DNA of 53,829 nucleotides from an uncultured Polynucleobacter sp. (GTDB lineage: Bacteria; Pseudomonadota; Gammaproteobacteria; Burkholderiales; Burkholderiaceae). The translations under genes were made by a program, and so were the position numbers. The notes below the pieces were generated by a model. It had not been told where the DNA came from. It saw only the letters and a program-made list of their open reading frames with translations, and made no database searches. This document shows positions 37,117 through 52,130 of this stretch, piece after piece (the first letter of the stretch is position 1; each line of letters opens with the position of its first letter). Where the stretch lies: the NCBI GenBank assembly GCA_964536365.1, contig CAZHWF010000002.1, forward strand, positions 1-53,829, written 5' to 3'.

Positions 37117-37542
37117 ATGAAAGTATTGCTACCGATAGATGGCTCAAAATCCTCCCTAAATGCAGTCAAATATGTTGCCAAGTTAGCGAAAAACTCTCGC
37201 AGCCCGGTAAAGGTTACTTTGGTAAACGTTCATGATGACGCTGGACTGTCACATGTAAAGCAATTTGTATCTAAAAGCGTAGTTGACGATTACTTGCGCG
37301 AAATAAGCGAAAAAGAGTTGAAACCAGCGCAAAAGGTTCTAGATACAGCCAGTGTCAAACATAATATGGTGATTAGACGTGGTCATATCGCAAACGAAAT
37401 CATTGCCTTAGCCAATAAAGACAAAGTTGACATGATTGTTATGGGCGTCAAGGGCCGCAGTGGTCTTTTAGATGTTCTGATTGGATCCGTAGCACAGCGT
37501 GTATCTAGCTCAGCTAAACAGCCAGTTTTATTAATTAAGTAA
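37117..37542 (+). CDS. Universal stress protein
   Basis: VLLPIDGS, IVMGVKGRSG..LIGSVAQRV, PVLLIK. Confidence 0.95.
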   Translation: MKVLLPIDGSKSSLNAVKYVAKLAKNSRSPVKVTLVNVHDDAGLSHVKQFVSKSVVDDYLREISEKELKPAQKVLDTASVKHNMVIRRGHIANEIIALANKDKVDMIVMGVKGRSGLLDVLIGSVAQRVSSSAKQPVLLIK

Positions 37543-37549
37543 AACCTCC

Positions 37550-37580
37550 CTCAGTTGGCCGTGTTTAGCGGCCAACTGAG
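37550..37580. other. Perfect 12-bp inverted repeat between usp and the ATPase
   Basis: CTCAGTTGGCCG-tgtttag-CGGCCAACTGAG, no immediate U-tract. Confidence 0.7.
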
Positions 37581-37606
37581 TCCATTGATTTTCTCGACTC
37601 GCAATC

Positions 37607-40105
37607 ATGCAAATTCCTGCACCCTCGCAGGGCCTCACTAAGTCAGAAGTCATTCATTTACAGAAGCAGCATGGATTTAACGAGCTTGCAGCTGCGGATA
37701 AAAAAACGATCTTAAAGTTACTGTTGCGAATATTGGCTGAGCCCACATTCGCACTACTATTATTGGCGGGCACAATTTACCTTGTCATTGGAAAAATTGA
37801 TGACGCATTAATTTTGCTTGGCTTTATCTTTATATCTGTTGGAATTACCCTATTCCAAGAAAGAAAAAGTGAAAAGGCGATTGACGCCCTTAAAGAATTA
37901 TCGAGCCCCAGAGCAATCGTGATTCGCAATGGCATTACCGAACGAATTGCCGGCAAGGATATTGTTATTGGGGACATTCTTATTCTTGAAGAAGGCGATA
38001 GAATTCCAGCGGATATTATCCTGCTAGAAACTCACGACCTACTGGTAGATGAATCTATGCTTACTGGCGAATCGGAACCTGTAAGTAAGGGTAATGCTAG
38101 CTCCGCTTACTCTGGGTGTATGGTGATCCGAGGTGGTGGAGTAGCGAGAGTTACTGCTATCGGCATGAAAACCGAGTTAGGCAAGATTGGCGGTAGCCTC
38201 AAACAAATTAATAAGCTCGATAGCCCTCTACAAGAAGACATAGGTGTCCTAATTAAAAGGTTTACGATATTCGGGATTTCGCTCTCAATTCTCGTACTAG
38301 TCATTTACGGACTCATACATGACAACTGGCTTCAGGGGGCACTTACCGCAATTAGCCTAACCATGGCTTTACTACCCGAAGAATTTACTGTCATTTTGAC
38401 GGTATTTATGGCGCTTGGGGTCTGGAGAATCTCCCATCAAAAGGTGCTCACTAGACATGCACCTGTGATTGAAACTTTAGGAAGCATCACCACTCTATGC
38501 GTCGATAAAACTGGCACCCTCACTGTAAATAAGATGTCTCTTGAAACGCTTGTCACTCCAGAAGATATCTTCACGTTTGACTTGAAACATGGAGAGCTAA
38601 ATTCATCGCAAAAGGAGCTTCTTGAATATTGCATTCTTGCAAGTGAAATAAAACCTTTTGATCCCATGGAACAAGCGTTTCATGAGAAACGTCATCTCAT
38701 ACCCGAGTATGAACTTGAATATTCAGGCTACGAATTAATTCATGAATATGGTTTAAGTCCTGAACTTCCTGCAATGACCCATCTTTGGCAAAAACCAAAC
38801 TCAAATGAATGCATCGTGGCCATGAAAGGGGCTCCAGAGGCCGTACTTCAATGCTGCAATTTAACGCCAACCCAGAAATTAGCGATTGAGAGCCAGATCC
38901 AAAATCTTGCTTCCCAAGGATTACGTTTGCTGGGGGTCGCAAAGTCGTGCTATATCAAGCAATCCAGCGATTGGCCAAGTGACATAGGATCTTTTGAATT
39001 TACTTGGCTAGGTCTTGTTGGACTGAAAGATCCAATCCGCAAAGAAGTTCCAGAAGCGATCAAGCGGTGTCAAGATGCCGGTATTCGAGTCATCATGATC
39101 ACGGGGGATCATGCCATAACTGCACAGGCAATTGCAAAACAAGCAGGCATCGACAGCGCCAATGTTTTATCGGGTGCGGATATCAATGCACTCGACGATA
39201 TTGAACTTCGAGAAGCGGCAAAGAAGACTTCTGTGTATGTTCGCATTAAATCCATCCAAAAATTACGACTTGTTAAAGCATTGCAAGCAAATCATGAAAT
39301 CGTCGCTATGACAGGCGATGGCGTGAATGATGCGCCCGCCCTAAAAGCTGCCCATGTTGGAGTGGCTATGGGACAACGAGGAACAGATGTTGCTAGGGAA
39401 GCTGCATCCTTAGTATTACTCAATGATGATTTTGCTTCTATCGTTCATACCATTGGGCAAGGCAGACAGATCTACGATAACTTACATAAGGCTATTATTT
39501 ATGTGGTTGCCATCCATATACCAATGGCAGGCGCGGTCTTTATTCCGATTCTATTTGGAATTGAGCCGATTCTGGATCCCATCCATATCGTTTTCTTGCA
39601 GATGATTATTGATCCAGCTTGCGCCATTATTTTTGAGAGGGAGGCGCCCGAGAAAGACGTCATGCTCAGACCCCCGAGAGACATTAATCAAAAGCTTTTT
39701 AGCTTGGAAAACATTTCAATGGCCCTGCTTCAAGGGACTGGCTTAACCTTTATTGTTGTTGGCCTGTATTTTTGGCTTCTCAAGCTAGGTCACTCCCATG
39801 CCATGGCCACAACCCTATCGTTTGGTTGCTTGGTGCTTGGCAATATCTCCTTAATTATTGTTAGTCGTTCGAAAAAAGATCACCTGTTTAACATTCTCAG
39901 AAAATCCAACCCTTCTCAAAAATGGATTCTAGGAGTTGGAGTGGTGTCATTTATCTTTTTAGTGACAACCCCATTCCTACGTGATCGCTTTCAATTTACA
40001 CAACCCACTACAGAAGGCGCATTAGTGATTCTTGCCTCTGGTTTAGTTGGACTAGTATGGTACGAACTTGTTAAATTCGGCTATAGAAGAAATTGGGCTC
40101 AGTAA
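37607..40105 (+). CDS. Cation-transporting P-type ATPase (P2-like)
   Basis: LTGES, LPEEF, CVDKTGTLT, KGAPE, MITGDH, TGDGVNDAPAL. Confidence 0.95.
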   Translation: MQIPAPSQGLTKSEVIHLQKQHGFNELAAADKKTILKLLLRILAEPTFALLLLAGTIYLVIGKIDDALILLGFIFISVGITLFQERKSEKAIDALKELSSPRAIVIRNGITERIAGKDIVIGDILILEEGDRIPADIILLETHDLLVDESMLTGESEPVSKGNASSAYSGCMVIRGGGVARVTAIGMKTELGKIGGSLKQINKLDSPLQEDIGVLIKRFTIFGISLSILVLVIYGLIHDNWLQGALTAISLTMALLPEEFTVILTVFMALGVWRISHQKVLTRHAPVIETLGSITTLCVDKTGTLTVNKMSLETLVTPEDIFTFDLKHGELNSSQKELLEYCILASEIKPFDPMEQAFHEKRHLIPEYELEYSGYELIHEYGLSPELPAMTHLWQKPNSNECIVAMKGAPEAVLQCCNLTPTQKLAIESQIQNLASQGLRLLGVAKSCYIKQSSDWPSDIGSFEFTWLGLVGLKDPIRKEVPEAIKRCQDAGIRVIMITGDHAITAQAIAKQAGIDSANVLSGADINALDDIELREAAKKTSVYVRIKSIQKLRLVKALQANHEIVAMTGDGVNDAPALKAAHVGVAMGQRGTDVAREAASLVLLNDDFASIVHTIGQGRQIYDNLHKAIIYVVAIHIPMAGAVFIPILFGIEPILDPIHIVFLQMIIDPACAIIFEREAPEKDVMLRPPRDINQKLFSLENISMALLQGTGLTFIVVGLYFWLLKLGHSHAMATTLSFGCLVLGNISLIIVSRSKKDHLFNILRKSNPSQKWILGVGVVSFIFLVTTPFLRDRFQFTQPTTEGALVILASGLVGLVWYELVKFGYRRNWAQ

Positions 40106-41993: not shown

Positions 41994-42317
41994 TTAGATT
42001 GAAGTCTTTGCAATAAAGAATGCTTTAGGCACTTCAGTGCACCACACAACACCATCACCAACCTGCCCTGTTTGACAAACAGTGACAATTTTATCCATGA
42101 GTACTAGCGCGATTTCATCATTACAGATGATCTCTATCCTCACCTTTGCTGAGTAGTCAGTTAACTCATCTTTGATATTGGTCTTATTTGTTTTATTTGG
42201 AGCACTACATCCTTCGACCTTAGCAACAGTCATTCCGGGAAAGCCAGGCGTTTCCATTAGAGCTGTTCTAAGGGCGGGTAATCTATTGGGGCGAATAACC
42301 GCCTTGACTTCCATCAT
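41994..42317 (-). CDS. Non-canonical PII-family protein
   Basis: KAVIRP, GMTV, KVRIEI and TGQVGDG align with GlnB; ATGA overlap with the RND gene. Confidence 0.92.
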   Translation of the reverse strand: MMEVKAVIRPNRLPALRTALMETPGFPGMTVAKVEGCSAPNKTNKTNIKDELTDYSAKVRIEIICNDEIALVLMDKIVTVCQTGQVGDGVVWCTEVPKAFFIAKTSI

Positions 42318-45300
42318 GCTTCCACCTCTTTCTCTTCAAACCATCTGTACAAGACGGGCAATACTAATAGGGTTAGCGCTGTCGAGGTAAGCAAACCTGC
42401 GATCACCACAGCGGCTAAAGGGCGGGTCACTTCGGAACCAGGACCTCCTGAGAACAACATCGGCACCAATGCCAACATCGCCACTGAAGCCGTCATCATG
42501 ACCGGTCTAAAGCGATGGCCGCAACCATGCAGTAAAGCTTCTTCCATGCTGTAACCATCTTCACGCAATTGTTTAATAAACGAAATCAACACCACACCAT
42601 TGAGCACCGCAATACCCCAGAGATTAATAAATCCTACGGCGGCGGGAACCGATAAATATTCGCCCGTTAGGAATAATCCAAACACACCACCAATTGATGC
42701 AAATGGCAAAACCATAATGATGAGACCAGCCAAGCGAACGGACTTGAATAACATAAACAACAAGAAGAAGATGGCCAAAATCGTGAGCGGAATAATGATC
42801 ATCAAACGAGCCATCGCGCGCTGCATATTTTCGAATTGGCCACCCCACTGCAAGGTATACCCTTGGGGTAATTCCACATTCTTAGCAATGAGCGCTTGGG
42901 CTTCTTTGACAAAGCCACCTAAATCTCGACCTTCCACATTCACACCAACCACCAAACGTCGTTTACCCGATTCTCGTGAAATCTGCGCAGGACCTTCTAC
43001 CAAGCTAATCTCAGCCAAATCTCGCATCAACACCTGGGCGCCGTCTGGGGAGTGCAAAATAATATTTTGGATGGCATCAATATTATTTCGATAAGCGCTT
43101 GGGTAACGCAACAGCAATGGGAAGCGACGCTCCCCTTCGTAAATCGTACTCGCCTGTTTACCCCCAATAGCAGTTTCAATGACTTCATTGACATCAGAGA
43201 CATTGATTCCATAGCGCGCGATCGCATCACGATCGATCTTGATGTTAAGGTAATTTTGTCCTGAGGCTTGCTCAATGCGTAAGTCATTACTTCCTTTCAT
43301 CTTGGTCAAGATCTGACCAATTTGAGAGCCTAATTTTTGCAGGATGGCGAGATCATCGCCAAATATTTTGACGGCTACTTGTGAACGGACCCCCGAGACC
43401 ATTTCATCGACTCGTGCCGCGATTGGCTGTGAGATCGCTAATTCAATACCAGGGAGCGTTTTAAGCTTCTCGCGAATTTGTTGAGCAATCTCTTCTTGGC
43501 TTAAATCTCTATCCCCAAGCGGTTTAAGCGTCACAATCGGATCAGACTCATTTGGCTGGCCTGGATCAGCGGGCGACTCGCCCTTACCTAAACGAGAGAC
43601 CGCCATCTCCACTCCAGGAATAGTCATGATGCGCTTGATTGCCTCAAACTCCAGTTTGATTGACTCATCTAATGAAATATTCGGGGCGCGTACGATCACC
43701 GGAGTAATTGATCCCTCCTGCATTACCGGAATAAATGCTTTACCCAAGAAAACAAACCCAACCAAGCTAACGCCCAATGCAATGACAGAACGCTTTACTA
43801 CTAACCTTGGATGTTCCAGACTCCAGTGCAGCCAGCGTTCATAGGGGCCGCGCATTTTTTTGACCACTTTCGTGTCATCCTCGCTGCCACCCTTGAGAAT
43901 ATAGGAACAGAGCGCTGGCGATAAAGTGAACGACAGAATGAGGGAGATTGTTAAGGCGATCGCAATGGTGATTGCCATTGGCGAAAACATTTTGCCTTCC
44001 ATTCCCTCGAGCGAAAGCAGCGGCATAAACACCAAAATGATGATGCCAACACCAAAAAGCACAGGCTTACCTACTTCTGAAGCTGCCTCCAAGATGATCC
44101 TGTTTTTAGACTCACCGGATTTGAGGCGTTCACCCAGTTTTGCGAATGTGTTCTCCACCACCACAACTGAGCCATCGACCATAATGCCGATCGCAATCGC
44201 CAAACCACCTAACGACATCAAATTCGCAGAGATGCCATAACGGTTCATAACCAAGAAAGTCAACAATGGCGTTAGCAATAAAGTGGCCACCACAATGAGG
44301 GATGAGCGCACATCCCCCAAGAAGAGAAAGAGCAATATGATGACCAAAATCACACCTTCAATAAGCACCTTAGCCACATTGAACATGGCAGCATTTACTA
44401 GGTCGGTGCGGTCATAGAAGGGCACAATCTGCAAACCATCGGGCAACAACTTGCCCTCGTTGATTTCCTCTACTTTAAGCTTGATGCGATTCACCACTTC
44501 TCTTGCATTGCCACCGCGAATCATTTGCACAATACCAGCAACGCTCTCTGTATAGCCATTCTTAATCGCAGCACCCTGTCGGATTTCACTACCAATAGTG
44601 ACTTCGGCAACGTTTTTGACATATACCGGAATACCTTTGACTTCTTTGAGAATAATTTTGCCAATGTCCTCCGGCTTATTAATTAATCCCAGGCCGCGGA
44701 TGAGGTATCGCTCCGCATAAGTGGGCAATTGACCGCCACCAGAATTCGCATTATTTCTGGCAAGTGCTTGATAGACTTCATGCAAACTGATTTGATAATG
44801 GCGTAATCTTTCAGGGTTTACAAGCACCTGATACTCTCGAGCATAACCACCCTGTGTATTGATCTCCGCAACACCAGGTATAGAGCGCAACATAGGACGC
44901 ACGATCCAGTCCTGCACAGCCCGTCGGTCAGATAATTCATCCTCAGAAAGCTCACGGTCTCCATCGGATGGATGATCCAAGGTGTACTGATAAATTTCAC
45001 CCAATCCTGTAGAGGGTGGAGCCAGTACCGGAGTAATGCCTACCGGCATCTTCGAGGCTACCTCAATCAATCGCTCAGTAACTAATTGACGAGCAAAGTA
45101 GATATCCGTTTTTTCAGTAAACACCAAGGTGATAATTGAAATGCCATTCCGATTTAATGAACGCATCTCAGTTAAACCAGGTAAACCAGTCATACCCAAT
45201 TCAATAGGGATGGTCACAAAGCGCTCCACCTCCTCTGGTGACTTACCAGGAGCCTCTGCAGCAACCTGGACTTGCACATTAGTCACATCTGGAAACGCAT

Positions 45301-45409
45301 CAACAGAGAGTCTTTTCGTTGCCAACAGGCCAGCAATAAGCAAAACAATGGCGATAATGACCACCAAAAGACGTTGCTGTAACGAGAGGCGAACGAGTCT
45401 TTCAATCAT
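42314..45409 (-). CDS. CzcA/CusA-family heavy-metal RND permease
   Basis: VDAFPDVTNVQVQ, TGLGEIYQY, NLMSLGG..GIMVDGSVVVVEN, RFRPVMMTA. Confidence 0.96.
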   Translation of the reverse strand: MIERLVRLSLQQRLLVVIIAIVLLIAGLLATKRLSVDAFPDVTNVQVQVAAEAPGKSPEEVERFVTIPIELGMTGLPGLTEMRSLNRNGISIITLVFTEKTDIYFARQLVTERLIEVASKMPVGITPVLAPPSTGLGEIYQYTLDHPSDGDRELSEDELSDRRAVQDWIVRPMLRSIPGVAEINTQGGYAREYQVLVNPERLRHYQISLHEVYQALARNNANSGGGQLPTYAERYLIRGLGLINKPEDIGKIILKEVKGIPVYVKNVAEVTIGSEIRQGAAIKNGYTESVAGIVQMIRGGNAREVVNRIKLKVEEINEGKLLPDGLQIVPFYDRTDLVNAAMFNVAKVLIEGVILVIILLFLFLGDVRSSLIVVATLLLTPLLTFLVMNRYGISANLMSLGGLAIAIGIMVDGSVVVVENTFAKLGERLKSGESKNRIILEAASEVGKPVLFGVGIIILVFMPLLSLEGMEGKMFSPMAITIAIALTISLILSFTLSPALCSYILKGGSEDDTKVVKKMRGPYERWLHWSLEHPRLVVKRSVIALGVSLVGFVFLGKAFIPVMQEGSITPVIVRAPNISLDESIKLEFEAIKRIMTIPGVEMAVSRLGKGESPADPGQPNESDPIVTLKPLGDRDLSQEEIAQQIREKLKTLPGIELAISQPIAARVDEMVSGVRSQVAVKIFGDDLAILQKLGSQIGQILTKMKGSNDLRIEQASGQNYLNIKIDRDAIARYGINVSDVNEVIETAIGGKQASTIYEGERRFPLLLRYPSAYRNNIDAIQNIILHSPDGAQVLMRDLAEISLVEGPAQISRESGKRRLVVGVNVEGRDLGGFVKEAQALIAKNVELPQGYTLQWGGQFENMQRAMARLMIIIPLTILAIFFLLFMLFKSVRLAGLIIMVLPFASIGGVFGLFLTGEYLSVPAAVGFINLWGIAVLNGVVLISFIKQLREDGYSMEEALLHGCGHRFRPVMMTASVAMLALVPMLFSGGPGSEVTRPLAAVVIAGLLTSTALTLLVLPVLYRWFEEKEVEA

Positions 45410-45414
45410 CGGTA

Positions 45415-46761
45415 TCAACCACCACTTAACTGACGCTTGCGCTCAGTATTTAAGTGATACGCGCCTTCAATAGCAATCTCTTGCCCCTCTTTTAAACCAG
45501 AAATCACTGGGCGGTAACCCTTACCTTCTGGACCAAGTTTTACGGGAACCATGCGATAAGTGTCATCATCCAGTCGAACATAAACGTGATCGTGATTATC
45601 TTCACGCACGATTGCCGCCAATGGAACTACCAATTTATCTACTGGCTGACTATCAATCAACATAGTTGCCAACATACCAGGCTTAATTAGGCCATCATGA
45701 TTTGGCAGATCCATTCGAACCACTACAGTGCGGGTCTGGGGATTCACAATCGAATCGACATGCGCAATGACGCCATCAATTTCCATATTTCTTAAGGCGG
45801 GAATAATGACTGAGGCCTTCTGACCCTTTTGCATCAGATAAGCATTACTCTCAGGCACCTCAGAGACGGCCCATAAGGTATTCAGATCAGCCACTGTGAA
45901 TAGCGCATCAGATGGCTGAACTACCTGACCACGATTAATTTTACGCTCCACAATTTCACCGGGAATCGTAGCAATCACATTATTAATCGATTCAATTACG
46001 CCAGATTTAGCAAGCTCATCAATGTTCGCCTGATCCATGCCCTGGACCTTTAACTGATCATTAGCAGCGCGAAACTCTGCCCTAGCGCTACTCGCCTCAG
46101 CCTCGCGTCTTTGCAACTCCGCTAACGCAATAACATCCTCTTTATAGAGAATCTTTGCGCGATTAGCAGCTTGATCAGCTAACTGACTTGCGCTTTTTGC
46201 CTTTAAATACGCTAACTGTGATTGAGTTAATTCTGTAGAGGTGATTTTGGCTAACACATCACCCTGCTTGACCACTTGTCCAGGCACAGCCAAGATTTCA
46301 GAAACTCGTCCAGTAACGTTTGCGCCAATTCGCGCCAAAAAGCGCTCATTAAAATCAATTCGACCAGAAGCGCGCAACTCTTCCACGAATGGAGATACTT
46401 GGGCTTTGCCATCGGCAATCATTTTGCGTAAGTCATCATTCACAATCACCACATTGGGATCTTGGACAGACTTAACAGGCGGCTTGAAATCAAAAACATT
46501 GAAGTAATTCAGGACTACTAAAAAAACACAAAACCAAGGCAAATAAAATACGCCCTTCTTGAACCAGGACGGAGTTTTGTCATAGCGATTACTCACTACA
46601 GGCGCATGACCTGCAATCCATTGATGGACTTGTTGATATAACTCATCTTGAGTCTGCAAAACTTGAGTAGTCCATTCCTTGGCATAGAATTTGACCTTTC
46701 TCATCAGAAAGGTTTTCCAGGCCTTTGCTTTTCTTAAGGCTTTAGACAGTTCTTGGTTCAT
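45415..46761 (-). CDS. RND periplasmic adaptor (CzcB-like)
   Basis: GQVVKQGDVLA lipoyl motif, VNPQTRT, IKPGMLA; ATG 46761 overlaps the stop of the TolC-family gene. Confidence 0.93.
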   Translation of the reverse strand: MNQELSKALRKAKAWKTFLMRKVKFYAKEWTTQVLQTQDELYQQVHQWIAGHAPVVSNRYDKTPSWFKKGVFYLPWFCVFLVVLNYFNVFDFKPPVKSVQDPNVVIVNDDLRKMIADGKAQVSPFVEELRASGRIDFNERFLARIGANVTGRVSEILAVPGQVVKQGDVLAKITSTELTQSQLAYLKAKSASQLADQAANRAKILYKEDVIALAELQRREAEASSARAEFRAANDQLKVQGMDQANIDELAKSGVIESINNVIATIPGEIVERKINRGQVVQPSDALFTVADLNTLWAVSEVPESNAYLMQKGQKASVIIPALRNMEIDGVIAHVDSIVNPQTRTVVVRMDLPNHDGLIKPGMLATMLIDSQPVDKLVVPLAAIVREDNHDHVYVRLDDDTYRMVPVKLGPEGKGYRPVISGLKEGQEIAIEGAYHLNTERKRQLSGG

Positions 46762-48032
46762 TGCAATCCACTTTCTATCTTTGCAAGCCATTCTGGACTT
46801 GCTCTTAATCTCTGAATTTCCGTTGTGACAGCCGCCAAATCAAAGCGCGCCCGAATCAAATCGTTCCTAGCGGCCCGGAATGTTCTTTGCGCGTCTAAAT
46901 ATTCGAGCATGCCGCGCTCGCCATAACGATAGGAAACTTCCGCAATTCGCTGAGCACTAGCCGCCAACTGCACCACTTCCTGACTTAATACTTTTACTTG
47001 GTAACTCGTCATTTGATAGAGCTTGTAAGCGGTTTCCATTTGCTGATCTAAGGTTTGGCTTTGGGCGTTTAATTGGTTTTTCGCCTTCGAAGCATTTGCC
47101 TCCGCTTCCGCAATCTGACCACCTTTGAAATCCCAGATAGGAATGCTAATTTGCAAACCATACAAACGATCAGTAAAGTTTGGATCGTTATATTGCGAGG
47201 CCTTAAATGCTAAGCGCGGCAAACGAGAGTTTTTTTCAAAACTCAGTTTTGATTCTGACGCATCGACCTCAGCCTTCGCTTTTTGTAACTCTGGACTTTG
47301 GGCTTGAACTTCGCTTAAAAGCGTTGGCAAGGGCGGCAATACTTCAGGCTTTGGTTGCTCAACAACCACCGTGAAGTCTGCCGGCAACTGGTGACCGACT
47401 GTTTGGCGCAATTGACTCCTAGCTTGCTCTACGCGCAACTTACTGGACTCAGCGGCAATTTGCGCATTAAGAAATTCGGTTTGCACGCGAATAAGTTCAA
47501 AGCGAGCGGTCTCACCAACGTCATAACGAATTTGCATGCGATCACGAATTTGCTTAGTCAAATTCATATCTTCTTCGGCAGCCTTTTGCTCTGCTTCACG
47601 GCGCATCAACTCATAAAAACGCTGCTGCACCTTAGAAATCGTCTCCACCTCAAATGCGATACGCGTAGCTTCTGCCGCCCTAAGGTTTGCCTCAGCCGCA
47701 TTCACACGAGGAAAACGCGTGTATGGCATATCCAATGGTTGAGTCACCGCCCATGAAGAAACATTGCCTACTGTTAACGGGCCAGTGGCAGAGCGTTGCT
47801 GGCCAGTTGAAATCTCAAACTCGGGATTAGGTATCGCCCTGGCGGTTGATAACTGCCCTTTAATTGCCTTAGCCTGATCTCGAGCTGCCAAAACTTGGGG
47901 ATTAGACTCTAGCGATAAAGCAATCAAATCATTTACGGTGAATGATTTTTGAGTTTGTGCGTTGGCATGAGCGGTCATAGTGATTACCGCGAAGGCAACT
48001 GCGACAATATTCAAACTACGATAGAGCAACAT
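46758..48032 (-). CDS. TolC/CzcC-family outer-membrane factor (frame open up to TTG 48173)
   Basis: Signal peptide after ATG 48032, ALSLESNP, ISIPIWD, YRYGERGMLEYLDAQR. Confidence 0.93.
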   Translation of the reverse strand: MLLYRSLNIVAVAFAVITMTAHANAQTQKSFTVNDLIALSLESNPQVLAARDQAKAIKGQLSTARAIPNPEFEISTGQQRSATGPLTVGNVSSWAVTQPLDMPYTRFPRVNAAEANLRAAEATRIAFEVETISKVQQRFYELMRREAEQKAAEEDMNLTKQIRDRMQIRYDVGETARFELIRVQTEFLNAQIAAESSKLRVEQARSQLRQTVGHQLPADFTVVVEQPKPEVLPPLPTLLSEVQAQSPELQKAKAEVDASESKLSFEKNSRLPRLAFKASQYNDPNFTDRLYGLQISIPIWDFKGGQIAEAEANASKAKNQLNAQSQTLDQQMETAYKLYQMTSYQVKVLSQEVVQLAASAQRIAEVSYRYGERGMLEYLDAQRTFRAARNDLIRARFDLAAVTTEIQRLRASPEWLAKIESGLQ

Positions 48033-48195
48033 AGGCACGAGTCGTGAATAATTTAGATATAAATTATCCAAGCCCTCAACAGAGGAATTTAAAAATATTC
48101 CCCACTTTAGGGCAGGAAAGCGCCTATAAATGCGACTACTGTGGCAGTAAGTTTTTTGCTTGTACGGTATCAATATATGGCCATTTAATTAAAGG

Positions 48196-48291
48196 TAAAT
48201 GGTCTTGCCTTAAAAATTACCCGCATACCGGACCTATTAGTCGTAATGACGATATGCGGGACCCATTGCTAGGCAGGCTACTCCCCGTTTA
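48196..48291 (-). ncRNA. yybP-ykoY manganese riboswitch aptamer
   Basis: Minus strand: P1 TAAACGG/CCATTTA, L1 GGAGTA...AAGA, P1.2 GCCT/AGGC, P2 GCCTA-gcaa-TGGGT, P3 CCCGCATATCG/CGGTATGCGGG, L3 TCATTAC, P3.2 GAC/GTC. Confidence 0.9.
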
Positions 48292-48333
48292 AGTCCTTAT
48301 TAGATCACAATTAAGTGATAAAAGTGATTTAGC

Positions 48334-48666
48334 CTATACATACACTTGCTTAGATAGACGTCCGTACTTCTGGGCTTTATGAAAGGCTTTCTGCATATGC
48401 TTGTAAACCTTTTTTAAGCCCATATCGAGAGCGGTTCGACGATCCCTTGCCGTAAAGCTGACCTCAATCTGGCGATTATCAAAAGTATGAAGTTCGATAA
48501 TGCAATTTTGATTGCAGCTTGATTTTGCTTGGGCTACAGAGGCGTACTTCACCTTAATTTTGCGCACGAGCCAAAATAGACGCTTTAGGGAAAACTTCAC
48601 GCGATTTTCAGTAAATGTTTTGAACTCTGGCTCAATGGCTTCTTTTGTTTCTAGTATGACATTCAT
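48334..48666 (-). CDS. Divergent HPF/RaiA-like protein
   Basis: 110 aa basic protein, ..ENRVKFSLKRL..VRKIKV...CIIEL...IEV...TALD pattern; AAGGAG RBS. Confidence 0.65.
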   Translation of the reverse strand: MNVILETKEAIEPEFKTFTENRVKFSLKRLFWLVRKIKVKYASVAQAKSSCNQNCIIELHTFDNRQIEVSFTARDRRTALDMGLKKVYKHMQKAFHKAQKYGRLSKQVYV

Positions 48667-48723
48667 GATTTATCTCCTTTTTTGAAGTTATGGGATAAAT
48701 ATAGGGACATTATTATTCCTAAT

Positions 48724-48772: not shown

Positions 48773-48798
48773 AAAAAAAATGCCCTCATAAGAGGGCA
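48773..48798 (-). terminator. Terminator of terC-usp
   Basis: TGCCCTC-N4-GAGGGCA followed by T8 on the minus strand. Confidence 0.88.
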
Positions 48799-48832: not shown

Positions 48833-50101
48833 CTAATCAATTACCGCCGCCAGCAAAGCAGTGGCTGCGCCTGCTCCAGCAGCAGGTATTCCCCAACGCT
48901 CCAAGGTTGACTGGGATTGACCAGTAACCACCTCCACTGGGATATCGCTAATTTCTAGCAATTTGGCTGTAGTAGAGTTTTCAAACAAACGACTTAAGGT
49001 GTTCTTTTTGGCAGTGCCAATCACAATTCGACTGCACTCTAAACGCTGTGCCTCATCACGCAAGGCCTCACCTTTATCGCCAGTTACGTAGGTGAATGAA
49101 AAATTTACACCCGCTTTTTCCAAAAACTGTGCGGCTGACTGGGATGCCATCTTTGCACGCTCGGCCTGCCACTCGCAAATGGTTTTCTTATTCAAAAACT
49201 TGCGGATGTGGGTATAGAGTGTTGGCTGCACATTACAAATATGAAAGTGCGCCTGCGGGTCCCTACCGTACACATTTACAGCATGCTTCAAGGCCAGCAT
49301 GGAATTACTAGATTCATCTACTGGTATAAGGATTTTATTCATAGCACTACCTCCTAGAGTATGAGACTGCTCGTTAAGCTGCGCTTGGGACGCAACAGAT
49401 TCAACTTCTGCTGGCGCAATAGATTCTTCCAGCGCCAACCGACTTTTAATAAAGCCCCCAAATAGAACACCAACAATCACCAAGACCTGAATTACGTAAT
49501 CAACCAGCGAGTTTTGGAAGAGAGCCAAATCTCGCACCATAGGCTCGGAAGTCATCATCTTGGCTGCAGTCCATGCCAGCACGCCTGCGCCGATATAGGT
49601 AACCGAAGGGAAGCGCTCAACTAGCTTGAGAACTTGCGTAGACCCCCAAATCACTACCGGAATGCTGATCAATAATCCAAGAACAACCAACACATAACTT
49701 CCATGCGATGCGCCTGCTACCGCCAACACATTGTCCAAGCCCATCACTGCGTCTGCGATCACAATGGTTTTCATCGCACCCCAAAAACTAGTTGAAGCAT
49801 GATCATGCGCGCCATCTTCCTCTTTTGCAGGATTCAGAAGCTTGTAGGCAATCCATACCAAGAGCAGGCCGCCAATCAACATCAAACCTGGAATTTTGAG
49901 TAGATATACGACCAATAAAGTCATTGCACTTCTAACCGCAATTGCACCGACCGCTCCCCAAACAATTGCTTTCTTTTGAAGATGTGGTGGCAAATTGCGA
50001 GCAGCCATTGCAATCACGATTGCGTTATCACCGGCCAATACCAAGTCGATCACGACGATTGCCAGTAATGCAGAAAAAAACTCGGGGCTAAATAGTTCCA
50101 A
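48833..50101 (-). CDS. TerC/YjbE-family metal transporter fused to a C-terminal USP domain
   Basis: IDLVLAGDNAIVIA and ADAVMGLDNVLAVA acidic motifs; USP part NKILIPVDES...IVIGT...IPVEVV. Confidence 0.93.
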   Translation of the reverse strand: MELFSPEFFSALLAIVVIDLVLAGDNAIVIAMAARNLPPHLQKKAIVWGAVGAIAVRSAMTLLVVYLLKIPGLMLIGGLLLVWIAYKLLNPAKEEDGAHDHASTSFWGAMKTIVIADAVMGLDNVLAVAGASHGSYVLVVLGLLISIPVVIWGSTQVLKLVERFPSVTYIGAGVLAWTAAKMMTSEPMVRDLALFQNSLVDYVIQVLVIVGVLFGGFIKSRLALEESIAPAEVESVASQAQLNEQSHTLGGSAMNKILIPVDESSNSMLALKHAVNVYGRDPQAHFHICNVQPTLYTHIRKFLNKKTICEWQAERAKMASQSAAQFLEKAGVNFSFTYVTGDKGEALRDEAQRLECSRIVIGTAKKNTLSRLFENSTTAKLLEISDIPVEVVTGQSQSTLERWGIPAAGAGAATALLAAVID

Positions 50102-50246: not shown

Positions 50247-51128
50247 ATGTCCATTAGCTATAACTACCGCCATCTCTACTATTTCTGGGTTGTTGCCAAG
50301 GAAGGCAGCATGTCCAAAGCCGCAGAACGCCTTGATATGGCTATTCAAACCATTAGCGCCCAAGTACATGAATTAGAAAAATCCTTGGGTTACATGCTTT
50401 TTAAGCCCGCCGGACGCGGCATCACACTTACGGAATCTGGATACGCCGCCCTAGCAATTGCCGATCAAATTTTTTCTATTGGAGAAAAACTCCCCGAGGC
50501 AGTAAGAGATGCCGCCAAATCCCCAAAAACCAAAATTACTGTGGGTGTTTCAGATGGTCTGCCAAAGTTTGTGACCCGACAGTTGTTAGAGCCGATCTTG
50601 AAACACAAGGGTGTGCAGCTTGTTGCTCACGAAGGTGAATTTGAAGATTTATTAGCTGACCTCGCATTGCATCGTTTGGATATCGTGCTAGCTGACCGCC
50701 CCGCCCCTAGCAATAAAAATCTTAATGTCTATAGCGATGAGTTAACTAAAACAGAAATTGCTTGGTACGCACCAAAGCAACTGGTGAAAAAGCTAAAAGG
50801 AAAGTTTCCGGAATGCATTAAAGATTTGCCCGTATTACTCCCCACTGCTCATTCCACCGCAAGACCATTAATTGATCAATGGCTCAGAAAGAACGACATC
50901 AATCCTAATATTGTCGGCGAGTTCGAAGATAGCGCCCTTCTCAAGACCTTTGCAGCCAACGGCCTGGGAATCTTTCCCGCAGGCAAGCTGATTCAAAAAG
51001 ACCTCAAAGATATCTATGGCATCGAATTTTTAGGCGCTTGCGATGACATTCATGAATACTTCTATGCCATTCGCTCAGAAAAGAAAATTCAGCACCCACT
51101 AGTTCAGGCAATTATTAAGCAACAATAA
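50247..51128 (+). CDS. nhaR: LysR-family regulator, NhaR type
   Basis: NYRHLYYFWVVAKEGS, LALHRLDIVLAD, GEFEDSALLKTF, KIQHP.V. Confidence 0.88.
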   Translation: MSISYNYRHLYYFWVVAKEGSMSKAAERLDMAIQTISAQVHELEKSLGYMLFKPAGRGITLTESGYAALAIADQIFSIGEKLPEAVRDAAKSPKTKITVGVSDGLPKFVTRQLLEPILKHKGVQLVAHEGEFEDLLADLALHRLDIVLADRPAPSNKNLNVYSDELTKTEIAWYAPKQLVKKLKGKFPECIKDLPVLLPTAHSTARPLIDQWLRKNDINPNIVGEFEDSALLKTFAANGLGIFPAGKLIQKDLKDIYGIEFLGACDDIHEYFYAIRSEKKIQHPLVQAIIKQQ

Positions 51129-51161: not shown

Positions 51162-52130
51162 ATGACCAACTTTCTTGATCCCGCAATATTATTTTTTATA
51201 TTTGGGGTATTCGCAGGATCCGTTAAATCGAATTTGGAGATTCCACCACAAATCTCCCGGTTCTTGTCGCTCTATTTATTAATGGCACTGGGACTAAAGG
51301 GTGGCTTTGCACTTCATAAGTCTGGCTTTACAAGCGAAATTGCCCTCTCATTGGGTCTCGCCATTTTTCTAGCCGTCACCATTCCCGTAATTGGGTATTG
51401 GATTTTGCGTAGAAAGCTTAGCGCCTTTGATGCTGCAGCAATTGCCGCAACTTATGGATCGGTGAGTGCCGTTACCTTTATCACTGCCACACAATATTTA
51501 GATCAATTTCATATTGCCTATGGCGGACATATGGCAGCGGCGATGGCACTCATGGAGTCACCCGCAATTATTCTGGCAATAGTACTAGCCAATAAAGCAA
51601 GAAAATCCATGGCCACAAACCCAGCAGAAAAAAATGGGGCGGTTGGGATTTCAAAAATCCTTCATGAGTCGTTTACTGATGGCGCTCAATTGCTTCTTCT
51701 AGGTTCAATGGTAGTTGCCTTGGTTAGCGGTGATGCTGGGCAAAAATTAATGGCACCCTTCTCAATTGATTTATTTAAGGGTATGTTGTCATTCTTCCTA
51801 TTGGATATGGGACTTATGGCCGCCAGAAATATGAAAGGTCTTAAGGGTAAGCCAACTATCACTTTGCTATATGCCATTGGCTCACCACTTACGCATGCGC
51901 TGTTAGCGCTAATACTGTGCAAACTCCTTGGCCTCCCACTAGGAAACACCATCTTGCTGATGGTGCTAGCTTCGAGCGCATCGTATATTGCAGTACCAGC
52001 AGTACTGCGCCACGCATTACCTGAAGTTAATCCTGCTTTGTATATGGGGATGTCGCTAGGGATCACTTTCCCCTTTAACATTATTTTGGGTATTCCGCTC
52101 TACAGCCTCATTGCAAGCGCCCTTCTGTAA
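51162..52130 (+). CDS. sbtA: Sodium-dependent bicarbonate transporter family permease
   Basis: LSLYLLMALGLKGG, AATYGSVSAVTF, MESPAI, ASASYIAVPA, LGITFPFNI. Confidence 0.92.
   Translation: MTNFLDPAILFFIFGVFAGSVKSNLEIPPQISRFLSLYLLMALGLKGGFALHKSGFTSEIALSLGLAIFLAVTIPVIGYWILRRKLSAFDAAAIAATYGSVSAVTFITATQYLDQFHIAYGGHMAAAMALMESPAIILAIVLANKARKSMATNPAEKNGAVGISKILHESFTDGAQLLLLGSMVVALVSGDAGQKLMAPFSIDLFKGMLSFFLLDMGLMAARNMKGLKGKPTITLLYAIGSPLTHALLALILCKLLGLPLGNTILLMVLASSASYIAVPAVLRHALPEVNPALYMGMSLGITFPFNIILGIPLYSLIASALL

Follow-up and report, generated by a model that had tools for sequence, protein, structure and literature searches.

Which metal leaves the cell through an efflux pump whose operon begins with an RNA of a manganese-sensing class? 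The question is raised by a 53,829-nucleotide stretch of DNA (here called the window) from an uncultured Polynucleobacter sp. of the Burkholderiaceae (assembly GCA_964536365.1, contig CAZHWF010000002.1, positions 1 to 53,829). On its minus strand, a predicted yybP-ykoY (Mn2+) riboswitch aptamer (48196..48291) directly precedes an operon for a TolC-family outer membrane channel, a periplasmic adaptor or membrane fusion protein (MFP), a permease of the heavy-metal efflux (HME) branch among resistance-nodulation-division (RND) transporters, and a PII-like protein. An earlier note, made from the letters alone, had proposed Mn2+ efflux across the envelope under RNA control. We put at about 0.5 the probability that the yybP-ykoY RNA is a Mn2+-triggered translational ON switch and that the pump, which belongs to the HME3b class, is made at high Mn2+ and exports Mn2+ across the envelope; this estimate is drawn from sequence comparison.

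The aptamer, drawn from the sequence, is a four-way junction. Helix P1.1 (48291-48285 with 48202-48196) has one C.A mismatch and is followed by the L1 strands (GGAGUA at 48284-48279, AAGA at 48206-48203), P1.2, P2 with a GCAA loop, a P3.1 of 11 bp, P3.2 and a short P4. The L3 loop (UCAUUAC, 48243..48249, minus strand) contains A48247, which we take to be the equivalent of A41; the C and A of this loop are invariant in 26 of 26 homologous leaders, and both the purine-rich L1 strands and the L3 adenosine occupy invariant columns of that alignment. The role of A41 in yybP-ykoY RNA is described in a section of PMC11672702. Across the same 26 leaders the drawn structure has 95% of its cells paired, with two-sided changes at 15 of 33 pairs; none of 500 shuffles equalled the real alignment, and slid controls were 14–45% paired. 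These leaders come from Polynucleobacter-genus kin and are hence not independent. Folded as a single sequence, the aptamer does not stand out from chance (z=-1.69; 11 of 200 shuffles equally good). The fold that had been read at 48291-48196 is thus borne out by the four-way junction and by covariation. The proposed check against the Rfam model succeeded in part: RF00080 is the best match (48186-48298, minus strand, E=0.0067), at 20.7 bits against a gathering cut-off of 45, and a scan at the gathering score returned no match across the whole window. In its own genome the element is the better of two RF00080 matches (E=7e-4; the second has E=0.22). Weak matches to the same model occur in 5 of 16 relatives' loci, and all nine non-genus loci with a yybP motif likewise fall under the cut-off, scores which suggest that Rfam-based surveys miss this riboswitch branch. 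We are nonetheless close to certain that the RNA is a true, if low-scoring, yybP-ykoY member. Just 5' of it lies a putative promoter element, TGTGATCTAAT (48299..48309, minus strand); the same or a near-identical motif is found at this place in loci L003-L005 and L007-L010, and it gave no match in a sigma-70 scan.

The pairing of RNA and pump is widespread within the genus. An orthologue of the operon's tolC is present in 115 of 241 genus genomes, broken copies counted, and the aptamer is carried by 43 of 59 pump loci, a biased sample of top-scoring and hand-picked loci. A covariance model built only from pump leaders (R1) matches 69 of 151 genus genomes, 70 times in all: 63 matches lie directly before this tolC, five before terC and one before a LysR gene (coordinates were compared by eye, 20 of the 63 are training sequences, and one of the 70 lay outside the comparison). 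That the riboswitch adjoins the tolC operon, as first claimed, is upheld by this tally, and the pairing is conserved. Of 16 hand-picked matches elsewhere in the genus that are not before tolC, 14 place this RNA type in front of terC, and in 150 genomes of the order R1 finds six elements, before genes for TerC (3), MntP (2) and GDT1/UPF0016 (1), four of which were confirmed by Pfam. These are the families expected behind yybP-ykoY. Decayed aptamer copies are seen in genomes G222, G252 and G065. In some small complete genomes (G089, G086, G103, G088, G022, G090; loci L072, L077) stops or frameshifts interrupt the pump genes, yet the aptamer is still recognisable. A looser aptamer pattern gave a tally of 140 of 241 that is not used here; its reversed control scores about as often, and only matches with the L3 motif were picked from it, by eye. 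Matches of the pattern inside coding regions of L117, L126, L135, L137, L142 and L150, and at C53 and C114, were dismissed in the same way.

Relatives place the RNA in other settings. In a sister clade of the genus (L083-L096) an aptamer of this type heads a terC gene that stands alone. The terC has a clear AAGG Shine-Dalgarno sequence, for which UCCUU in the aptamer is a possible partner, and in several of these genomes the pump is kept with no aptamer before it. In G168 and G221 (L097:971-2067, L098:3951-5032) a yybP-ykoY-like element lies directly before a LysR gene divergent from terC-usp, where a Mn riboswitch may control a transcription factor.

How might the RNA govern tolC? The 3' strand of P1.1 (48202-48197) has an alternative partner at 48187-48181, forming a hairpin (CCAUUUA/UAAAUGG, 48181..48202, minus strand) that corresponds to the OFF state. 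It belongs to the minimum free energy fold; relative to that fold, forcing P1.1 to form costs 4.8 kcal/mol. Within its 3' arm an AUG at 48184 is hidden. Reading on from there gives a four-codon upstream open reading frame (uORF), MAIY* (48170..48184, minus strand), which ends in a TGA overlapping the TTG at the start of the tolC frame. The hairpin is 86% paired in the 26 leaders, with compensatory change between clades only, one genus clade having CCAGUUUU/AAAACUG with an in-frame GUG. More widely, a start codon lies inside the hairpin in 40 of 43 leaders, and 38 of the 43 lead into the tolC frame; 15 run straight into tolC as a fusion, 23 have a uORF of 3–4 codons with its stop overlapping or abutting the tolC-frame start, and two have other short uORFs at this codon. 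A start-hiding hairpin competing with P1 is likely to be a translational ON switch.

The TolC reading frame can begin at 48173 (TTG) or at 48029 (ATG), where a normal-looking signal peptide opens. The 48 in-frame codons between them (48030..48173, minus strand) keep their frame and not their amino acids. Their frame is open in 27 of 28 long leaders, as against 4 and 0 for the other two frames, and substitutions by codon position are 0.49/0.50/0.51, compared with 0.18/0.11/0.58 in mature TolC; given such equal change at all three positions, a functional peptide is rejected. Among six long leaders of the main clade in which the aptamer has decayed or gone, four have a frame that closes early, and short-leader clades retain both aptamer and in-frame start. 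A frame kept open up to the signal-peptide ATG, behind a hidden start, thus fits a translational ON switch with ribosomes crossing the leader.

The genes behind the leader stand in the order tolC-MFP-RND-PII on one strand, and every junction overlaps; reading-frame coordinates and profile matches here confirm what had been reported. The HmyC-like channel (46758..48173, minus strand; PF02321, E=3e-43) has only Polynucleobacter TolC proteins as named relatives among the matches listed. The adaptor (45415..46791, minus strand) scores above the cut-off of TIGR01730 and below that of TIGR00999 (CzcB/NccB); its N-terminal segment is long, with about 100 residues more than homologues outside the genus. 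The permease (42314..45418, minus strand) reaches 1114.7 bits against TIGR00914 (cut-off 701). It had been called CzcA-type, a label that has to be given up. The motif for transmembrane helix 4 (TM4) of CzcA (HME1) is DFG-x3-DGA-x3-VEN (part of PMC3637150), whereas the window permease reads GGLAIAIGIMVDGSVVVVEN, which lacks DFG and agrees with AIG-x3-DGS-x3-VEN, the motif for HME3b (HmyA) in supplement 3 of PMC7060636. CusA is ruled out by TM4 together with its Met sites. Among the best plasmid-collection matches is a chromid gene of Cupriavidus metallidurans CH34, 63.8% identical to the permease and with a transposase inserted before it; as passages of PMC2864759 and PMC11647585 describe hmyA of CH34 as interrupted by IS1088, this gene is identified as HmyA. 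The role of Hmy is reported as unknown in a section of PMC7060636. Despite 63.8% identity, the two permeases belong to different well-supported subclades: in a FastTree tree of 60 sequences (L139 and L141 left out) the window permease falls in a clade of 28 with support 1.0, separate from HmyA and bearing the signature QPIAARVDEM.

The periplasmic part of the permease has acidic residues at E141, D618, E624, D626, D671 and E672. On a residue numbering that we presume to carry over from CusA and ZneA, Glu stands at two of the three positions where CusA has Met, and four of five ZneA-site positions are acidic. To judge from these residues, the site suits a hard divalent ion, without singling out Mn2+, and would argue against the monovalent-cation substrate predicted for HME3b.

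The last gene (41994..42317, minus strand; PF00543) encodes a PII-like protein. It scores 53 bits against a curated GlnB/GlnK cut-off of 202, and alignment to GlnB places Glu at the position of T-loop Tyr51, which sets it outside the canonical GlnB/GlnK class. It combines a PII fold with a place in a heavy-metal RND operon, which marks it as of PII-NG type; the clustering of PII-NG genes with czcABC is described in part of PMC7726332, and this tail gene is an ordinary, described companion of such pumps. A role as SbtB-like partner of an SbtA-like protein is not favoured: most loci that lack sbtA still have PII behind the pump, and in L114, L140, L166 and L169 an sbtA gene stands behind the pump with no PII.

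Outside the genus, 40 stretches from 92 places were chosen by score and family. Seven of these HME3b loci have the RNA: two directly before tolC (family f13) and five (family f61) at the head of terC-usp-tolC-MFP-RND, a run that continues with PII, an sbtA-like gene or both, so that terC-usp stands between riboswitch and pump. A survey of downstream genes in Burkholderiales, as the earlier note had advised, thus finds the pump link recurring beside the TerC, MntP and UPF0016 elements. An incomplete scan of 80 named loci, which overlaps the earlier sets so that counts are not additive, found the motif in 19: ten of Polynucleobacter type and nine others, with Quisquiliibacterium transsilvanicum (L155) a named locus outside the genus. 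All 19 have the QPIAARVDEM signature, and none of 22 loci with other signatures carries the motif. The link may be one old association with many losses, rather than the product of repeated gains. Among related pumps, most riboswitch- or terC-headed runs have an Sbt_1 gene 3' of the pump on the same strand (L113-L116, L140, L165-L167, L169), and a role of the SbtA-like gene in Mn or carbonate handling is possible. Two HME permease genes stand in tandem in one operon in L125 and L128 (also L218, L221, L228), and permeases of the same HME3b subclade occur with no tolC or MFP match upstream in L117, L118, L123, L200, L204 and L206.

Put together, the switch would work as follows. While Mn2+ is scarce, P1 would give up its 3' strand to the hairpin and the AUG would be hidden. 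Mn2+ bound between L1 and L3 would lock P1 and free the AUG, whereupon ribosomes would translate MAIY* and restart at the overlapping TTG, or, in relatives with a fusion, enter tolC directly; the overlapping stops and starts would then hand translation along the operon. In the pump, the acidic periplasmic site would bind a hard divalent ion, proton antiport would run via D415/E422 of TM4, and the PII trimer would tune activity. A second, riboswitch-independent promoter probably gives basal expression. We offer more tentatively the wider proposal that one HME3b subclade is a both-membrane Mn2+ exporter absent from the described Mn efflux families, switched in Polynucleobacter by a yybP-ykoY variant that the Rfam cut-off misses and that frees the hidden AUG of a tolC-coupled micro-uORF, beside a Mn module of TerC-Usp, PII-NG and SbtA-like proteins. 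To our knowledge, the Mn exporters MntP, CDF, UPF0016, TerC and the P-type ATPases cross the inner membrane only.

A number of observations weigh against Mn2+ export under RNA control. RF00080, though the best and a significant match, stays under its gathering cut-off, and 16 of the 59 genus loci are without an intact aptamer. Among the 26 leaders, covariation in the OFF hairpin does not exceed that of shuffles (113 of 500 were as well paired), and the hidden AUG has no evident Shine-Dalgarno sequence in front of it. Pumps that lack the riboswitch, HmyA included, have almost the same acidic site, which therefore does not mark Mn2+. HME3b is listed under 'monovalent cations' in parts of PMC7060636 and PMC3637150, and a response of yybP-ykoY RNA to Ca2+ in vitro is reported in a section of PMC11672702. 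In the 60-sequence tree 14 of 15 riboswitch-linked pumps fall in the one clade of 28, and this clumping means that they are not independent pairings; of 58 QPIAARVDEM loci, 19 have the motif and 39 do not, some of the latter being truncated. Further candidates for Mn export in the organism are GDT1 and TerC. MntP was not found in its genome, which is 75% complete, nor was a yybP motif 5' of its GDT1 gene.

Within the leader itself there is a further difficulty. A hexamer GATAAT (48063..48068, minus strand), a candidate -10 element, is present in 26 of 28 long leaders, and a palindrome CCCTAAAGTGGGG (48112-48100) with a T-rich tail (48098..48119, minus strand) in 25 of 28. The two keep a near-fixed spacing and almost no synonymous variants, such as would be expected of a protein motif, and GATAAT persists in five main-clade loci with a lost or decayed aptamer (G252, G173, G126, G065, G068). 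Lying between aptamer and signal-peptide ATG, they may form a bypass promoter with its operator; the region may alternatively hold an attenuator hairpin. A promoter of this kind is what the earlier note had thought would undo its case; a candidate is indeed there, yet it has no consistent -35 and gave no match in the sigma-70 scan. That such a protein-controlled promoter, with its palindrome about 50 nt 5' of the predicted start, drives most expression from the ATG at 48029 and leaves the riboswitch a minor layer is improbable: the signal peptide from that ATG looks normal, but the frame above it stays open when the aptamer is intact, and short-leader clades have aptamer and in-frame start with neither the long leader nor the spacing. 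Dual control, by riboswitch and internal promoter, seems most likely. More improbable still is a transcriptional switch, in which RNA polymerase would be stopped, either by the hairpin that competes with P1 or by that of the palindrome and its T tail (48119-48098), unless Mn2+ or a leader ribosome prevented it. The palindrome resembles a terminator, some relatives have U-rich tails after the OFF hairpin, and ribosome-coupled attenuation would be in keeping with a frame that is open and yet unconstrained. Terminator-like matches are, however, near chance frequency (4 found against 2.5 expected), so that the palindrome match is not significant alone; the OFF hairpin is weak (-5.4 kcal/mol), AU-rich and without a U tail in this genome or the GUG clade, and what is conserved in it is the start codon inside. 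Contigs from RNA libraries (three runs, two studies) give scattered pieces of the operon, none spanning aptamer and tolC and one ending at 48295; since contigs cannot show ends or levels, no conclusion on transcription is drawn from them. An independent DNA run spans 46984-48677 without an indel. The aptamer-less pump loci L073-L080 have a palindrome of their own upstream of tolC, AGGGAT(T/A)ATCC(C)T, a candidate operator.

Other alternatives accept the leader and question the cargo or the use of the RNA. The riboswitch might work with Mn2+ as a mere cue, or as one cargo among divalents (Mg, Ca, Co, Zn), or the module, along with TerC, the NhaR-like regulator and the SbtA-like transporter, might answer alkaline or carbonate stress. 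Of 16 riboswitch-less loci of the same signature that were examined, 3 do have MgtE (L172) or CNNM/CorC (L197, L223) beside the pump; the pump is repeatedly accompanied by terC-usp, NhaR-like LysR and sbtA-like genes; and alx of E. coli responds to alkali. The Ca2+ response of the RNA points the same way, as does the induction of a PII-NG-czc operon of Geobacter by Co and low Fe (part of PMC7726332). Yet all other transporters found behind this RNA type are of Mn-linked families, and where it lies directly before tolC there is no other gene under its control, and we consider a wider cargo or role unlikely while taking it seriously. There is very little to commend the view that the aptamer is a relic of a relocated terC gene that no longer controls the pump: family f61 has the RNA heading terC-usp with the pump behind, three genomes have the decayed copies noted above, and the aptamer survives before the broken pumps of G086 and G089, but compensatory changes run through the aptamers of intact-pump genomes, and the start-hiding hairpin and open frame are conserved.

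The surroundings of the operon bear on its regulation. Its immediate neighbours are a small unannotated reading frame downstream and, upstream, an HPF/RaiA-like gene (48334..48666, minus strand), a lead given by ESM-atlas neighbours (HPF/RaiA, 0.90–0.95) with no Pfam match; in the main clade its place, with terC-usp on one side and the aptamer on the other, is conserved. Next come an intrinsic terminator from the terminator scan (48774..48798, minus strand) and, before it, a TerC (YjbE-type)-Usp fusion (48833..50101, minus strand; TIGR03717 above cut-off, PF03741 and PF00582). A weak RyhB match turned out to be this terminator hairpin, and a SNORD20 match was dismissed as terminator or chance. 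Divergent from terC-usp is an NhaR-like LysR regulator (50247..51128, plus strand; 203 bits against an NhaR cut-off of 219), and behind it, 3 kb upstream of the pump, an SbtA-family (Sbt_1) transporter (51162..52130, plus strand; PF05982) of a kind that accompanies the pump in several lineages. The absence of a flanking two-component or extracytoplasmic function (ECF) sigma regulator, as first described, stands: none was seen among 12 reading frames scanned (37.6-52.7 kb), though the NhaR-like gene lies 2 kb upstream. On the opposite strand, 2 kb past the pump's end, a Usp gene is followed by a PMR1-like cation P-type ATPase (37117-40105); related ATPases export Ca/Mn.

The riboswitch is a substrate clue for an RND subfamily of reportedly unknown role. 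It makes two questions directly testable, namely the cargo of HME3b pumps and whether periplasmic Mn2+ is cleared by Gram-negative bacteria. With its tolC in nearly half of the genomes of a common freshwater genus, the operon may mark adaptation to Mn-rich or redox-boundary waters.

In the literature searched, no paper was found on Mn2+ export by HME-RND pumps or on the pairing of yybP-ykoY with an RND pump, although gene tables of yybP-ykoY surveys could already list the latter. Genes downstream of yybP-ykoY in PMC3766115 include ykoY, COG2119 and COG1971, among the first 8 of 18 listed, and COG3696, COG1538 and czcA were not found in eight supplements of that article. The pairing of this riboswitch with an orphan RND subfamily is real, conserved and apparently unpublished. 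A precedent for a metal riboswitch before metal-efflux genes is the NiCo/czcD riboswitch, found in 5' untranslated regions of czc genes in Clostridium and Erysipelotrichaceae (part of PMC11672702), which differs in RNA class and metal. Among pumps, CzcCBA (HME1) and ZneCAB (HME3a, PDB 4k0e) have the same tripartite HME-RND architecture, and the acidic periplasmic site of ZneA is partly shared; the window permease, however, has no DFG in TM4, no adjacent two-component or ECF regulator, and Ala at the D654 position of ZneA. CusCBA (HME4) is similar in its GG(I/L)AIA(V/I)G-type TM4 and different in its three Met positions, which are Val, Glu and Glu here, and in its cusF, which is missing. To PII-NG systems, with a PII fold encoded beside a heavy-metal RND operon, no difference was found. 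HmyCBA of C. metallidurans CH34 is similar in its permease, the shared AIG-x3-DGS-x3-VEN motif and the C-B-A gene order. The operon described here departs from it in a permease of a separate subclade, with QPIAARVDEM and D626 in place of QPISDRVDEM and T, in a riboswitch in place of hmyF, and in a PII tail; no yybP element was found at the CH34 hmy locus.

The riboswitch itself resembles RF00080 in its GGGGAGUAG L1, its CGUCA L3 with the invariant A, its CAAGACC strand and its four-way junction, and in the company that the same RNA type keeps with terC, mntP and UPF0016 genes in relatives; it differs in its score and in heading a tripartite RND operon. The yybP-ykoY members before mntP and alx of E. 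coli are translational ON switches. In contrast to these, the window leader appears to hide a start codon rather than a Shine-Dalgarno sequence, and apparently couples to the gene behind it through a uORF of 3–4 codons, which makes its expression platform an unusual one.

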